From a virus, in UHGV virus genome UHGV-0123274: 15,494 nucleotides of DNA; one strand, written 5' to 3'. Below the pieces are notes generated by a model. The model was not told where the DNA came from, made no database searches, and saw only the letters and a program-made list of their open reading frames with translations. Numbering within the stretch: the first letter of the stretch is position 1; each line of letters opens with the position of its first letter. A program made the position numbers and the translations under genes. Below, in pieces: positions 2,059 to 6,958 of the stretch.

Positions 2059-2582
2059 TCACCCCTCGCATATTGTCCGTGATATTTGTTGATAGCCTCA
2101 CTGGCAACCAAACCAGCAAGCTCAAGATCTTCATAGAACCCAAAATGCAACCGGCCAAAATCTGTGCGCACTTGAACGGCCCATTTATTTTTTTGCTTGT
2201 TCCATAAAACATTTTTTATTCCAGAACGGCTATTGCACTTAGTTTTCTGATTTCGGCTGTTTGCTATCCGGCTTGCCTCCCTAAGATTTTTTGGGGAATT
2301 GTCCAGCCTGTTTCCGTTAATATGGTCAATATTTTTCAATGGCATTCTTTTGTTGTGCAGCGCAAAAACAACTACGTGAACAAACATCTGAATGCCTGCA
2401 AAACACACCTGTCTATACCCAGATCCATTTATCGATGTTTTAATTTCATCTCCGGCCCGGTGGCTGTGGTTGGGGTGTTTTAGCGAGTCCTTTTTGTATC
2501 TGACTGTATCTCCGTCTAAATACAGATAATCCTCAATAAGCCGATACCTATCTGACGCTGGCGTATTTGATTTGATAGTCAT
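2055..2582 (-). CDS. HNH homing-type endonuclease (HNH motif plus AP2-like DNA-binding region)
   Basis: Motif NIDHINGNRLDNSPKNLR (HNH) followed by WNKQKNKWAVQV...FGFYED (AP2-like); ATG at 2582 overlaps ninB stop (ATGA); track ORF start 2642 lies inside ninB. Confidence 0.8.
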   Translation of the reverse strand: MTIKSNTPASDRYRLIEDYLYLDGDTVRYKKDSLKHPNHSHRAGDEIKTSINGSGYRQVCFAGIQMFVHVVVFALHNKRMPLKNIDHINGNRLDNSPKNLREASRIANSRNQKTKCNSRSGIKNVLWNKQKNKWAVQVRTDFGRLHFGFYEDLELAGLVASEAINKYHGQYARGE

Positions 2583-3019
2583 GCAGCCCGATCTCCCCAT
2601 CTCGCTTTCCACTCCAGAGCCAGTCTCGCTTCGTCTGACCACTTAACGCCACGCTCTGTACCGAATGCCTGTATAAGCTCTAATAGCTCCGCAAATTCGC
2701 CTACACGCATCCTGCTGGTTGACTGGCCTATTACCACAAAGCCATTCCCGGCAAGGTTAGGAACAACATCCTGCTGCTTTAATGCTGCGGTAAACACACA
2801 CTTCCAGCTTTCTGCATCCAGCCAGCGACCATGCCATTCAACCTGACGAGAGACGTCACCTAAGCAGGCCCATAGCTTCCTGTTTTGGTCTAAGCTGCGG
2901 TTGCGTTCCTGAATGGTTACTACGATTGGTTTGGTTGGGTCTGGAAGGATTTGCTGTACTGCGTGAATAGCGTTTTGCTGATGTGCTGGAGATCGAATTT
3001 CAAAGGTTAGTTTTTTCAT
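2579..3019 (-). CDS. ninB: NinB (Orf-family recombination mediator)
   Basis: Translation from MKKLTFEIRSPAHQQNAIHAVQQILPDPTKPIVVTIQERNRSLDQNRKLWA closely matches lambda NinB as recalled; GGAGAGGG Shine-Dalgarno upstream of ATG at 3019. Confidence 0.9.
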   Translation of the reverse strand: MKKLTFEIRSPAHQQNAIHAVQQILPDPTKPIVVTIQERNRSLDQNRKLWACLGDVSRQVEWHGRWLDAESWKCVFTAALKQQDVVPNLAGNGFVVIGQSTSRMRVGEFAELLELIQAFGTERGVKWSDEARLALEWKARWGDRAA

Positions 3020-3044
3020 GACTTCCCTCTCCCCCAAATAAAAA

Positions 3045-3075
3045 GGCCTGCGATTACCAGCAGGCCTGTTATTAG
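3045..3075 (-). terminator. Intrinsic terminator between helicase gene and ninB (tR2-like position)
   Basis: Hairpin ggcctgc-gattacca-gcaggcc at 3054..3075; on the minus strand followed by U-tract (complement of aaataaaaa 3045..3053). Confidence 0.55.
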
Positions 3076-3095
3076 CTCAGTGATGTAGATGGTCA

Positions 3096-4532
3096 TCAGA
3101 ATCCCCCTTTCTTCTTGGACTGCGGTTCCTTGCGTTCACGGCGGCGAATTTCAGCAGACTGTTGGTCTGTGTCATAAATAGCGCCATTTGCCTGAATGCA
3201 ATACACCGTACCGGTATTGCCATGACGATTGAGACGAAGGATTAGTTCGGTTTCACCAGGTGGAACACTGTCATCAAAAGCGCCTTCACGATGGATCCCA
3301 ACCCAATAATCGCAATCCTGTTCAATCTGCCCTGTATCTCGTGAGTCACTTGGTAATGGGCGTTTATTGGTTCGGCTTTCCAGTGCGCGGTTAAGCTGCG
3401 TCAGAAGCACAACAACGCAATCAAGCTCTTTGGCAAGGTTCTTCAGTCCTTTGGTGATCATGCCGTAAGCAAGGTCGTTGCGATCGGCCTTCTCAGCGGT
3501 CATTAGTGTCAGGTAATCGACCAGAATCATGCCAACACATCCTTTTTCTCGCTTGATTCGACGGCTTTCGCTGACGATTTGAGCCAGAGATAATCCCGGC
3601 GTGTCGTCGATGTAAAGCATGTCGATTTCACTCAAGCGATTAGCTGTTTCGATCGCCCTGTTGAAGGCACCATCGTAATCACCCTGATAGCCGTCATCAG
3701 CGTCATTTGTCGCCGGAAGGTAAAAAATATTCGGGTTAACACCAGACTTCTGCCCTACCAGTTTTTCCAGTATCTGATCACCTGGCATTTCAAGGCTGAA
3801 CATCAAAGCGGGCTTTTTCTCATGCACTGCGCAATTGATTGCCATCTGGCTGTATAGCGTCGTTTTCCCCATCTTAGGGCGAGCGCCAATGACAAACAGA
3901 GAGCCTTTCACCAGACCTTTCGGTGACAGCATCCTGTCCAGCGATGGGATCCCTGTGCTCATTCCCCGTTGTTCGCCTGATGGGTCAAATCGCTTCTCAA
4001 GGTCGCTAACCCAGTCTTCCATGACCTCACCAAATGAACGAAGGCCGCGACGCGATCCGGTTTTTGCATGGTCTGTCAGTTGCGTGAAAATCGCCTGAAT
4101 AGCTTCGTACTTCTGCGTTGCAGTCATTCCGTTGCGGGAATAGAGCAATTCCGTCGCTTCAGTCATGCGGTTGATGGCGTAGCGTTCCATTGCGGTTTCA
4201 CGAACCTGCATTGCATAGGCAACGATGTTTGCTGCGCTTGGCGTGTTCTTTGCGATCTCAGCGATATAAGCAAAACCGCCAACAGACGCCGTTAACGATT
4301 TACGCTCCAGTTCATCGAAAAGCGTCAGGCCATCTACTGGCTTTTGCTCCCGGTGCATTCTGGTTATTTCTTCGAAAAGGATTTTGTGTGGTCGGCCGTA
4401 AAATGAATCAGGCTTCAGCATCGCCAGAACTTTCCGGACGCGCTCACTGCTGTCATCATCCAGAAGCAATCCACCAATCACCGCCTGCTCTGCCTCGATG
4501 CTATGGGGCGGCGCATAAAAATTATCGGTCAT
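3096..4532 (-). CDS. DnaB-family replicative DNA helicase
   Basis: 478 aa from ATG at 4532 (GAGGG RBS); Walker A GARPKMGKT and DnaB-like N-terminal region; overlaps the stop of the O-like gene. Confidence 0.9.
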   Translation of the reverse strand: MTDNFYAPPHSIEAEQAVIGGLLLDDDSSERVRKVLAMLKPDSFYGRPHKILFEEITRMHREQKPVDGLTLFDELERKSLTASVGGFAYIAEIAKNTPSAANIVAYAMQVRETAMERYAINRMTEATELLYSRNGMTATQKYEAIQAIFTQLTDHAKTGSRRGLRSFGEVMEDWVSDLEKRFDPSGEQRGMSTGIPSLDRMLSPKGLVKGSLFVIGARPKMGKTTLYSQMAINCAVHEKKPALMFSLEMPGDQILEKLVGQKSGVNPNIFYLPATNDADDGYQGDYDGAFNRAIETANRLSEIDMLYIDDTPGLSLAQIVSESRRIKREKGCVGMILVDYLTLMTAEKADRNDLAYGMITKGLKNLAKELDCVVVLLTQLNRALESRTNKRPLPSDSRDTGQIEQDCDYWVGIHREGAFDDSVPPGETELILRLNRHGNTGTVYCIQANGAIYDTDQQSAEIRRRERKEPQSKKKGGF

Positions 4533-5421
4533 CGTGTTCACCCTCACGAACTTTCAGGTAGGTATTATCGTTAAGCAGGAAATCAAATCCCTTTTTGTGC
4601 CAGACGGTTCCGCGCTGATGGTTTGGGCGCTCTTCGAACATCCATCGGCAATTTTCGCCTACGTAGCTCAAATAATTTCTCCAGTCCTGCATCGTGAAAC
4701 CATGCCCGTCAAGCTGTCGGGTTATCACTCCGGCTTTGCGCCAGAACGTTCGGATCTGGTTTTTACGCTTGTCATTCAGTGCGCGGATTCTTGGCGCTTC
4801 AGGAAGGATTTCGTGGTAAGCATCGACAACATCCTGACAGCTGACGGAAGGTTTTTTCTTGTCAGACTTTTTGTCTGCTGTGGCACTCTCTAATACGTCA
4901 GTATTAGAGATAATATTATTATATTCTTTATCTGTGGTAATTTGCTGGTAATCTGCTGGTACAGTATTGCTTGCAGGCATTGGTATTGCTGGCTTTGAGG
5001 TGGTAATTTGCTGGTAATCTGCTGGTACAAAATTTGACTGATAATCGTCATATTTCTCTACCGAGAAAACTGAGAATTTACCGTGTGAAACCCAGTCAAT
5101 CATGCCGAGTTTTTTGAACTTTCTAAGCAGGTACTGAACGCGATCTGGTTTGAGTCCTGTTTCAAACGCCAGAGTATTTCTACCGCCAAGTAGCTTCCCT
5201 CTGCCTACCAGAATTTCTCCTGCGTCAGTCATTACATACTCAGGCGTATGCTTTGCTTTGAGGATTAAGTGAACCCACAGATGCGCAGTTTCTGCGTCCT
5301 TGTAAAACGGCACATCCATAATTTTACGGTGCAGCAAGGCATACCCCTTACCGCTGCTTTGATGCGGTTGTTGTAGCCTTCTGGCCTCTCTGGCTTCGGC
5401 TAGATTAGATATGTTACTCAT
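4522..5421 (-). CDS. Replication initiator, lambda O-like (contains origin iterons)
   Basis: 299-aa ORF with AAGGAG RBS; sits between cII and helicase; internal tandem peptide [10 protein letters not shown] x2 coded by DNA iterons. Confidence 0.8.
4900..5040. repeat. Origin-like iteron array plus adjacent AT-rich tract inside the O-like gene
   Basis: 30-bp direct repeat gtggtaatttgctggtaatctgctggtaca at 4934..4963 and 5000..5029, built from shorter ggta(a/t)t..gc sub-repeats; AT-rich tract at 4900..4930 downstream in O direction, as in lambda ori. Confidence 0.65.
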
Positions 5422-5560
5422 GACCTTTCTCCTTCTGCATCAGCTTCACTTTTTCCAACTCAGCCCGGAATCGACCAGGCTGCTTGAAGCTGGACAGGAA
5501 GCGATCACGTAGTATGTGTTTGTGAATTTTGTCCTGGTAAGGACTGAGTTGTTTTGTCAT
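5414..5560 (-). CDS. Small 48-aa ORF between cII and O, translationally coupled to O
   Basis: ATG at 5560 preceded by AGGAG 5 nt upstream; product [48 protein letters not shown]; stop overlaps the O start. Not in the ORF track (below its length cutoff). Confidence 0.4.
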
Positions 5561-5594
5561 AATGACTCCTGTTGATAGATCCAGTCTTTCTACA

Positions 5595-5873
5595 TCAGGC
5601 CTCGAAGAATTCGCCGTTCTTCGGGGCTTTTTCTTTTGTCAGCATTCTGGCTACTTTCTTAGCCAGTTCCGCCAACTCCTCGTCTTCAACACCCCATTCA
5701 AGAACAGCCAGAAGCATTCCCATTTTTGGGATGAAGCTGTCTTTCCATCGCGAAATTTGCGATTCATTAATCCCTAACGCGTCGGCAACCTTTCGCTGAC
5801 CACGTACAGCAATTCGATTCAGGATGTTGCTTGTAATTGCATTCGCTTTCTTGCGAGTACTTGTAAGTTGCAT
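5595..5873 (-). CDS. cII: CII transcriptional activator
   Basis: Motifs QISRWK, IPK and [10 protein letters not shown] match lambda CII; true start taken as ATG at 5873 (AAGGA RBS) because the longer track ORF would cover the nutR site. Confidence 0.85.
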
Positions 5874-5930
5874 ATGTAAGTATTTCCTTAACAAATAAGA
5901 AGTTATGCGCATCAAATTATGCGCGTTGTA

Positions 5931-5975
5931 TTCCCGCATTTCGGCGGGAATGAGGACCATGACTGTTAAAGAGCG
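5931..5975 (-). promoter_or_regulatory. nutR-like antitermination site (boxA plus boxB hairpin)
   Basis: Minus strand reads CGCTCTTTAACA (boxA consensus) then hairpin uucccgc-cgaaau-gcgggaa; located directly downstream of cro, as in lambda. Confidence 0.6.
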
Positions 5976-5983
5976 GGTACTGC

Positions 5984-6202
5984 TTAGGCGGCTTTGTTAC
6001 TGGATGGAGGGAAAACATCATCCAAAGAACATTGGCACCCTAACTTCCTGAGGCCTTCTACGATCATTCGGCAATCGTTAAGGCCAGGAGTACGGATATT
6101 CAGCTCATAGTTGGCGATGCGGGATTGCCCCCAACCAATTGCTGAAGCTAGTACAGCTTGCGAAACTCCGATTTTTTTTCGCTGCTGGGCAATTTTGTTC
6201 AT
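5984..6202 (-). CDS. cro: Cro-like repressor (XRE-type helix-turn-helix)
   Basis: 72 aa from ATG at 6202 with AGGGAG RBS; HTH segment IGVSQAVLASAIGWGQSRIANYE; divergent from cI. Confidence 0.8.
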   Translation of the reverse strand: MNKIAQQRKKIGVSQAVLASAIGWGQSRIANYELNIRTPGLNDCRMIVEGLRKLGCQCSLDDVFPPSSNKAA

Positions 6203-6219
6203 TGCGGTCTCCCTAGCAT

Positions 6220-6305
6220 TAATCACACACCCATTACACACAATTTGTGATTAACAGTCAACCTCAATTCGTGTACAGAGTTCAATCACGTTGCGTGTTA
6301 CATTT
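6220..6305. promoter_or_regulatory. oR operator region with pR (minus strand) and presumed pRM (plus strand)
   Basis: pR: -35 TTGACT (6256..6261) with 17-bp spacer and -10 TGTAAT (6233..6238) on minus strand; palindromic CACA..TGTG-type sites, one (acacaatttgtgatt) near-identical to a site in oL. Confidence 0.6.
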
Positions 6306-6310
6306 AAGGG

Positions 6311-6958
6311 ATGAAAACGATGCATGAAATTATCGGGGAAAGGATCAAGTCCCTTAGAGAAGCTAAAGGACTTAGCCAGGCTCAATTGGCCAAGCTTTGC
6401 GGCTGGGCTGCGCCTTCACGCCTGGGGAACTACGAGTTAGGAACAAGAAAGGTTAGCGCGGATGACGCGCTGGTTCTTGGGGCGGCACTCGGCGTATCTC
6501 CGGCAAAAATAATGTTTGGCGAGGATTCAGACGCCGTATTTCGCCAATATGAATACCCGTTATTTTCTTCAGTGCAGGCCGGGCCATTTTCGGAGGTGGG
6601 AAGCTACACAGCCAGCGATGCAAAGGCATGGGTCCCAACGACCACAAAAGCCAGCGAAAAAGCTTTCTGGCTTGAGGTGAAGGGGCATTCAATGACGGCG
6701 CCTCAGGGGGTTCGTCCAAGTTTTCCGGAAGGCATGCTGATACTCGTTGATCCGGCTGAGCCGGTAGAGTCTGGGGATTTCTGCGTGGCTTCTGCAAATG
6801 GTGATTCAGAGGCAACGTTCAAGAAGTATGAGAAGGATGCAGGGGTTAGTTACCTGGTACCTTTAAACCCGGCATATAGAACACTGGATTGCGACCATAG
6901 CTGCCGCATCATAGGCAAGGTAGTTAAGGCGCAGTGGCCTGAAGAGACGTTTGGCTGA
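6311..6958 (+). CDS. cI: CI-type prophage repressor (N-terminal HTH, C-terminal S24 LexA-like autopeptidase domain)
   Basis: 215 aa; [15 protein letters not shown]; Ala-Gly cleavage candidate in VQAGPF; Ser in GHSM and Lys in TFKKY; C-terminus AQWPEETFG resembles lambda cI as recalled. Confidence 0.9.

Follow-up and report, generated by a model that had tools for sequence, protein, structure and literature searches.

Replication origins that lie inside the gene for a phage's own initiator protein have been annotated in several lambdoid phages, and a repeat array of this kind is found in an O-like replication initiator gene of the virus genome UHGV-0123274, a stretch of 15,494 nucleotides that is referred to here as the window. 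In the record of phage VT2-Sakai (AP000422), the misc_binding features 'ori iteron 1' and 'ori iteron 2' map exactly onto window positions 5000-5029 and 4934-4963, and a two-piece rep_origin in HK620 (AF335538) falls on exactly the same positions; the annotated locus positions 1979-2008 and 1913-1942 correspond to these two intervals. The annotation of Sf6 gene 43, whose product is 66% identical to the O-like protein of the window, mentions a repeat region reminiscent of the lambda origin and similar to that of HK620, and gene 18 of phage L (65% identical) is annotated as carrying a 'putative origin of replication'. Six 11-bp repeats in phage L gene 18 were described as the likely origin by Zaworski et al. 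in 2021 (PMC8022706), and the genetic swaps of Hilliker, to the extent that they are recounted in that paper, found the replication region to be exchangeable only as a whole. In the literature on Shiga toxin (Stx) phages, the module is named Eru3, as Eru3A and Eru3B (PMC8044961).

A putative origin at this place, annotated or described in near-identical and related phages, is thus already known. What appears to go beyond the existing annotation, as far as was found, is a family-wide geometry of 3 + 3 asymmetric 11-bp repeats in one register, together with a palindrome whose arms seem to covary by Watson-Crick pairing. From these comparisons, the element is very probably the origin of a lambdoid replicon of the HK022/VT2-Sakai/HK620 type ('Eru3'), set where the initiator gene encodes the linker between two protein domains. 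An initial annotation of the window had proposed an iteron origin inside the O-like gene, with the iteron sequence setting replication specificity, and this proposal agrees with the comparative evidence and with the annotation of the near-identical phages.

Six 11-bp iterons within the initiator gene

The features of the initiator gene are listed below in the order of translation, with window coordinates. Domain boundaries are those of a predicted structure, with the predicted local distance difference test score (pLDDT) given for each.

4522..5421, minus strand: O-like replication initiator gene, 299 amino acids (aa), of the HK022 gp54 / VT2-Sakai O / 'Eru3A' type, phrog_345
5038..5343, minus strand: N-terminal winged-helix domain, predicted to bind iterons; aa 27-128; pLDDT above 95; topology H-H-b-b-b-H-H-b-b
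5020..5030, minus strand: iteron 1, TTGTACCAGCA, in 11-bp register
5009..5019, minus strand: iteron 2, GATTACCAGCA
4998..5008, minus strand: iteron 3, AATTACCACCT, a variant unit
4965..4997, minus strand: 33-bp spacer between the iteron triplets, including one weaker in-phase iteron-like unit, AAAGCCAGCAA
4954..4964, minus strand: iteron 4, CTGTACCAGCA
4943..4953, minus strand: iteron 5, GATTACCAGCA
4932..4942, minus strand: iteron 6, AATTACCACAG, a variant unit
4911..4933, minus strand: A+T-rich tract of 23 bp, predicted DNA-unwinding element
4887..4910, no strand assigned: perfect 10-bp palindrome with a 4-nt spacer, TCTCTAATAC-tgac-GTATTAGAGA, from an inverted-repeat scan
4525..4854, minus strand: C-terminal helical domain, predicted to recruit the helicase; aa 190-299; pLDDT above 92

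Exact repeats were sought across the whole 15.5-kb window with up to 3 mismatches allowed, and 200 dinucleotide-preserving shuffles served as the control. A 30-mer, TGTACCAGCAGATTACCAGCAAATTACCAC on the minus strand, was found in exact copies only at 4934-4963 and 5000-5029, in accordance with the initial annotation; no third copy exists in the window at up to 3 mismatches, and 0 of the 200 shuffles gave any match. Both copies lie inside the O-like open reading frame (ORF) at 4522-5421 (-), their starts are 66 bp (22 codons) apart, and they encode the same 10-residue peptide twice, at residues 132-141 and 154-163 of the 299-aa protein, a duplication that had also been pointed out at the outset. 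The sub-repeat period within each copy, first given as about 10 bp, had to be corrected to exactly 11 bp, as seen both with Tandem Repeats Finder and by reading in register.

Read in this register, 99 bp divide into nine 11-bp slots, of which slots 1-3 and 7-9 are TTGTACCAGCA, GATTACCAGCA and AATTACCAC.., with a weaker version of the unit in slot 4. The core of the iteron in the window is TTACCAGCA, and the arrangement is three units, a 33-bp gap and three units; because the triplets start 66 bp apart, all six units share one 11-bp register and hence one helical phase. An inverted-repeat scan of 4500-5450 found no inverted repeat within 4932-5030, and the iterons are asymmetric direct repeats devoid of dyad symmetry. 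Across iteron classes (described below), the spacer between the triplets is weakly conserved apart from its start, where about 12 nt past iteron 3 (4986-4997) are semi-conserved with the consensus cgcaAAc.C. It was also observed that the sixth unit always ends in CCAC or CCAT rather than CCA(A/G)C.

Within a triplet, the successive units are in frames 2, 1 and 0 and so yield the unrelated peptide pieces PA, YQQ and ITT. As 11 bp is not divisible by 3, the 11-mers occupy every reading frame, and the constraint therefore acts on the DNA. The 11-bp repeat, present in six copies as 3 + 3, is the most likely binding unit, rather than the 30-bp block. These features bear directly on the notion that repetition was selected at the protein level, the DNA repeat being a by-product of a repeated linker motif that contacts, for example, the helicase or a host factor. 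The peptide is indeed duplicated in every homologue, and the 66-bp unit preserves the frame, such that variants with three and four copies still give in-frame proteins. Nevertheless, an 11-bp period that reads out as unrelated peptides in three frames is not what such selection would leave, the two copies are identical at all 30 nt including synonymous sites, and the segment is predicted to be disordered. Between iteron classes, moreover, the peptide changes freely, whereas the DNA keeps its 11-bp units and an invariant CCA core. Selection on the peptide is therefore considered highly improbable as the source of the repeats, and the origin reading is preferred.

Searches for other sites gave negative results. 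No second iteron cluster was found in the 15.5-kb window, where the other 9-mer matches lie scattered and are no more numerous than chance predicts; an isolated TTACCAGCA at 3054-3062 was rejected as a second site, being single and likewise attributable to chance. There are no DnaA boxes near the origin, TTWTNCACA occurring in the window only at 1339 and 8784, which is chance level. A consensus scan of 4400-5700 detected no sigma-70-like promoter, and an Rfam search assigned no family to the origin region.

The A+T-rich tract and a covarying palindrome

The initial annotation had noted an A+T-rich tract at 4900..4930 flanking the repeats. The composition bears this out, with a G+C fraction of 0.20 in 4900-4939, the minimum of the O-like gene, and 82% A+T in the 40 nt after the iterons, and the region can be described more precisely as an A+T tract at 4911-4933 followed by the palindrome at 4887-4910, which had been overlooked. 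The position of the tract is A+T-rich in every Enterobacterales-type homologue displayed.

The palindrome is present in every Enterobacterales-type gene, at a near-constant distance from the iterons, with a perfect stem of 9-10 bp and a loop T(A/G)A(C/A) in the homologues. Among 23 distinct versions, aligned on the palindrome itself, 97% of cells are paired, compared with 59.5% in shuffles and with 28-46% when the partners are slid. Each of the 10 stem pairs was changed on both sides and none was scored as a one-side-only change; G-T pairs occur at the outermost position only, in 2 of the 23 sequences. The peptide encoded across the palindrome changes accordingly between homologues. By estimate (380 positions x 4^-9), a perfect palindrome of at least 9 bp with a 4-nt loop would arise by chance in about 1 in 700 windows, and as single-stranded DNA the sequence folds at -8.6 kcal/mol (z -5.5). 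Because the covariation is of the Watson-Crick type only, it favours a dyad that acts as DNA, whether a hairpin or cruciform or a symmetric site for a protein, over an RNA helix, as judged from the aligned versions. The palindrome lies outside the public 'ori iteron' annotations. It was flagged by a consensus scan as terminator-like on the plus strand, and an RNA terminator was rejected in view of its 3 G-C pairs, its mixed A/T tail and the restriction of G-T pairs to the outermost position.

The initiator protein and its predicted disordered linker

Over 299 aa, the O-like protein is 98.0-99.3% identical to the O proteins of VT2-Sakai, Stx1 and Stx2 phages, HK620, HK022 and mEp235, among others. 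It matches phrog_345, 'replication initiation O-like', with an E value of 6e-87, and PHROG families labelled 'DnaD-like helicase loader' match its N-domain region. A Pfam scan returned only a sub-threshold DUF7376 and no Phage_rep_O (PF04492) at E up to 0.01; NCBIfam gave no match, and a sequence search of the PDB gave nothing meaningful. The wider initiator family comprises 6,936 cluster representatives at E up to 1e-3.

The structure was modelled with AlphaFold2 on an alignment of 50 sequences (mean pLDDT 82.5), a single-sequence run (mean pLDDT 41) being unusable. Between the two domains listed above, residues 129-190 form a linker with pLDDT 41-56 and almost no secondary structure, and the codons of the origin, 131-179, fall wholly within this predicted disordered segment. 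Foldseek returned winged-helix DNA binders only (TubR, CAP, SmtB/CadC and CodY-C), all weak with E about 1e-2; the top match in the PDB was TubR, itself weak at E 0.011. As these matches are generic for winged helices at E ~1e-2, no specific structural relative can be claimed.

Conservation of the layout and pairing of iterons with the N-terminal domain

Homologues were sampled from phage records and from one genome per species (51 loci), mostly Enterobacterales, which gave 54 distinct Enterobacterales-type genes with 39-98% identity to the window protein. The layout of three 11-bp units, spacer, three 11-bp units at a 66-bp offset, A+T tract and palindrome is kept in 52 of the 54, in genera ranging from Escherichia to Xenorhabdus and Thorsellia; the two exceptions, L034 and L035, are built of 12-bp units. 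Fifty genes could be placed in register, and 43 of these separate the first iteron from the palindrome by 127 or 130 bp.

At least 10 iteron classes could be distinguished, all with the invariant CCA. The class TTACCAGCA contains the window, HK022, one Enterobacter prophage and one Pantoea prophage, and further classes are TGTCCAGCC, TGTCCAACG, GTGCCAACA, AATCCAAAG, TTCCCAGAA and others. Within one gene, both triplets are identical at 22-30 of 30 positions while the spacer between them varies freely, a likeness that, in terms of the sequences compared, is concerted evolution of the repeats.

Distances between iterons and between protein domains were compared across 52 genes by Mantel test with Spearman's rho. 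Iteron distance is correlated with N-domain distance (rho 0.62, Mantel p 0.0005); with C-domain distance, the values are rho -0.01 and p 0.53, and the N-domain and C-domain distances are mutually uncorrelated. N-domain sequences group cleanly by iteron class, and class-specific residues are found in the predicted recognition helix and wing. The C-domain swaps independently of the N-domain and iterons. Erwinia phage Ehr59, for example, retains the N-domain type and has GTGCCAACA-type iterons; its C-terminal region is of another kind, and a gene for a lambda-P-like loader follows downstream. In the converse case, about 170 complete E. coli genomes match only 4522-4931 of the window (the C-terminal half, palindrome and A+T tract) at 97-99% identity; in one of these, L065, an Sf6-type N-domain and Sf6-type iterons are joined to this segment. 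The boundary between iteron 6 and the A+T tract, at ~4931, is where the mosaic junction with Sf6-type O genes falls. From the Mantel result, Ehr59 and the E. coli mosaics, it follows that the N-domain and iterons travel and change together as a specificity module.

Distant homologues from Glaciecola, an Elusimicrobiales metagenome-assembled genome (MAG), a Bacteroidia MAG and Prevotella have arrays of 11-12-bp repeats directly after the region encoding the N-domain, and in the four examined a stretch with 75-82% A+T follows the array. Among distant N-domain homologues, which span Bacteroidota, Elusimicrobiota and Alteromonadales, 5-9 contiguous 11- or 12-bp repeats were observed in L062 (1780-1890, Prevotella sp. 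oral taxon 376), L061, L060 and L058; the 12-bp unit of Prevotella gives an (NEQT)n peptide.

Copy number of the 66-bp unit

A comparison of the sequences of close relatives shows that this unit behaves as a tandem repeat which gains and loses copies. The forms found are as follows.

277 aa: 1 peptide copy; prophage of E. coli GPEC505-623 (L064), with an exact in-frame deletion of 66 bp
299 aa: 2 peptide copies; the window and most relatives
321 aa: 3 peptide copies; P0002 and P0020, read directly, and 24 more (P0003-P0027), inferred from length
343 aa: 4 peptide copies; P0001, with 3.5 perfect 66-bp units in the DNA of L067 at 2893-3120

The units of the four-copy array are 100% identical, which implies a recent expansion, and in L067 this array sits in an intact-looking cI-cro-cII-O-helicase-ninB module. 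The initial annotation had ascribed the repeats to a tandem duplication. For the 66-bp unit, this is a genuine and continuing process, as the relatives with 1, 3 and 4 copies show; the two-cluster state itself is old, being common to 52 of 54 genes, and does not stem from a recent duplication in this phage.

The same variation could be taken to mean that the region is mainly a recombination or module boundary of mosaic lambdoid genomes, with the repeats as functionless products of slippage. The mosaic junction at the iteron/A+T boundary and the growth and shrinkage of the unit would both fit. What they would leave unexplained is a 3 + 3 layout, a CCA core, homogenisation within genes and covariation with the N-domain, all kept from Escherichia to Xenorhabdus and Thorsellia, and an array without function is accordingly scarcely credible.

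A second alternative accepts the repeats as binding sites of the initiator and assigns them a mainly regulatory role (titration or handcuffing of O, autoregulation, or a block to forks or transcription), with replication starting elsewhere. Plasmid iterons act in copy control, and a unit number of 1 to 4 among close relatives is of the kind tolerable for a modulatory site. The gp38 protein of phage SPP1, bound at oriR, has been proposed to stall forks (PMC6316719), which is also in keeping with such a role. Against it, the A+T tract and palindrome follow the array in every aligned Enterobacterales-type gene, mostly at the 127- or 130-bp spacing noted above; this is the anatomy of an unwinding origin, in the order of the experimentally defined lambda ori, and the window offers no second iteron cluster. 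A regulatory site with the start of replication elsewhere is thus improbable, and the array is best read as part of the origin itself.

Proposed mechanism and significance

If the element is the origin, the N-terminal domains of the O-like protein would occupy the 11-mers in head-to-tail fashion along a single face of the helix, giving a nucleoprotein complex that would distort the DNA and melt the adjacent A+T tract. The C-terminal domain would recruit the phage's own DnaB-type helicase onto the opened DNA, and the palindrome may aid opening or helicase loading as a DNA-level element, whether as a hairpin or cruciform once unwound or as a dyad site. The iteron sequence and N-domain together would set the specificity of the replicon.

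Several points weigh against this interpretation. Llarena et al. (2021) treat the Eru3 module as undescribed and leave iterons unmentioned (PMC8044961), and no binding, unwinding, plasmid-replication or mapping experiment for an origin of the HK022/VT2-Sakai type was found in the literature searched. The winged-helix assignment comes from a predicted model and weak Foldseek matches, and should be taken as provisional. Anchoring the palindrome alignment on the palindrome introduces an ascertainment bias. The correlation between N-domain and iterons is partly confounded by physical linkage, the interleaved spacer, which is largely saturated, giving rho 0.22. Finally, the single-triplet prophage of GPEC505-623 may indicate that two clusters are not strictly required, or may itself be defective.

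A more far-reaching proposal is that this initiator family opens DNA in a manner unlike lambda, through a head-to-tail winged-helix filament with an obligatory hairpin or cruciform as the entry site for the helicase. This is conceivable and is offered tentatively, as it is more doubtful than probable. If true, the pairs of N-domain and 11-mer, at least 10 in number, would amount to a readable recognition code for engineering orthogonal phage replicons.

Of 5,426 complete E. coli genomes, 396 contain the module, and many prophages of this species replicate by means of it, among them the Stx2 phage of O157:H7 Sakai; the level of phage replication affects toxin output. The added value of the present analysis is modest and consists of comparative support for the origin function and for specificity shared by iterons and N-domain. 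The element is defined more precisely, as six 11-mers, an A+T tract and a covarying palindrome, and the natural variants with 1, 3 and 4 clusters could be used to ask how many iterons are needed.

Gene neighbourhood

The genes around the O-like gene are as follows.

6311-6958, plus strand: cI-like repressor
5984-6241, minus strand: cro-like helix-turn-helix protein
5595-5960, minus strand: cII
5414-5560, minus strand: 48-aa ORF, DUF2740 (P22 orf48 / HK620 hkaW), with 8 nt of overlap at the start of O
3096..4547, minus strand: DnaB-type replicative helicase of the P22 gp12 / HK022 P type, overlapping the end of O; Pfam DnaB and DnaB_C, E 1e-30 and 9e-60
2579-3037, minus strand: ninB

The gene order from cI to ninB is that of the early-right operon of a lambdoid phage, here on the minus strand. 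The helicase start at 4547 is that of the longest ORF, with a GTG start codon, and the start annotated in HK620 corresponds to window 4532. There is no gene for a lambda-P-type loader between O and the helicase gene. The 48-aa DUF2740 ORF is conserved ahead of O at most of the homologous loci. Taken as a whole, the window is mosaic, with at most 39% of it covered by any one phage record.

Two further observations were made in this region. An ORF with an HNH_3 endonuclease domain (2055-2642, -) lies beside ninB in the nin region and is possibly a mobile insertion of a homing-type endonuclease. A strong terminator-like hairpin with 14 pairs and a T-run is found at 5597-5629 (+), inside the 3' end of cII, and upstream of it, at ~5545-5577 on the minus strand, there is a close match to the oop promoter and 5'-end sequence, ACTGGATC.ATC.ACAGGAGT.ATTATG.CAAA, in its conserved form as quoted in PMC3349717. 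The interval 5531-5629 (+) likely encodes an oop-like antisense RNA; Rfam gave nothing above threshold for this putative region.

Comparison with known systems

For VT2-Sakai, HK620, HK022 and mEp235, the putative ori agrees with that of the window: the 30-bp repeats lie exactly where AP000422 and AF335538 have them annotated, and the neighbours are the same, namely cII, the 48-aa DUF2740 ORF, O and the DnaB-type helicase. Their O proteins differ from that of the window by 1-5 residues, with nothing of substance among the differences; relative to the window, iteron 4 of HK022 carries one substitution and its spacer several. Phage L / ST64T gene 18 and Sf6 gene 43 encode homologous initiators (65-66% identity) and have the same layout of 3 + 3 11-bp units, A+T tract and palindrome. 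Their C-terminal half and palindrome are nearly identical to those of the window, whereas the 11-mer is TGTCCAACGG instead of TTACCAGCA and the N-domain has diverged, and a different replication specificity is therefore predicted for these phages.

P22 resembles the window in that its ori lies inside the initiator gene 18, followed by a DnaB-type helicase gene, gene 12. The C-terminal domain of P22 gp18 is weakly similar to that of the window protein (25% identity, E 1e-4), and no similarity was detectable for its N-terminal part. The P22 ori is built differently, with longer repeats around CGGTAAAAC, described elsewhere as four ~20-bp repeats (PMC8022706), and a G/C-rich palindrome. With only the C-domain weakly similar and the iterons different, P22 gene 18 was rejected as a direct model. 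A biochemically reconstituted precedent for an origin inside an initiator gene in a DnaB-helicase system is oriL of SPP1, which lies in gene 38 and is bound by gp38 (PMC6316719). Like the window, it combines direct repeats with an A+T-rich unwinding element inside the initiator's own gene; unlike the window, SPP1 has a Gram-positive host and a separate loader, gp39, and helicase, gp40.

Among winged-helix proteins, PhoB on pho boxes and TubR on tubC bind head to tail to tandem direct repeats of 11-12 bp. By analogy, the predicted winged helix of the window protein and its contiguous direct repeats of about one helical turn would suit such binding, although PhoB and TubR serve transcription or plasmid segregation rather than replication initiation and share no sequence homology with the window protein. 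In the origins of iteron plasmids (RepA, pi and TrfA type), a winged-helix initiator binds direct repeats beside an A+T-rich unwinding element; the window has direct repeats and an A+T tract, and its winged helix is a prediction. DnaA boxes, which adjoin the iterons in such plasmid origins, are absent near the array of the window. Typical plasmid iterons are 17-22 bp long, whereas the window repeats are 11 bp and lie inside a gene.

The comparison with the lambda and P22 origins called for in the initial annotation thus showed an in-gene origin with different repeats in P22 and, for lambda, a shared order of elements. The lambda ori also lies in the middle of the gene for a 299-aa initiator, O, with iterons, an A-rich tract (~40 bp) and an inverted repeat in the same order and orientation along translation; the inverted repeat, of 12 bp with a 4-nt spacer, occupies the same relative position as the palindrome of the window. 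Lambda has four 18-bp dyad-symmetric iterons (ATCCCTCAAAACGAGGGA), in contrast to six asymmetric 11-bp direct repeats in two triplets. Lambda iterons bind O dimers. No similarity between lambda O and the window protein was detectable (BLASTP E 4.8), and the partner differs as well, being the P loader of host DnaB in lambda and a phage DnaB-type helicase here. The lambda-type arrangement suggested at first is therefore upheld for layout and order, and not for the protein or for the symmetry of the iterons. In 933W/P27, two extra iterons relative to lambda add 13 residues to O (PMC7466680), a gain of iterons that lengthens the initiator much as the 66-bp unit does in relatives of the window.

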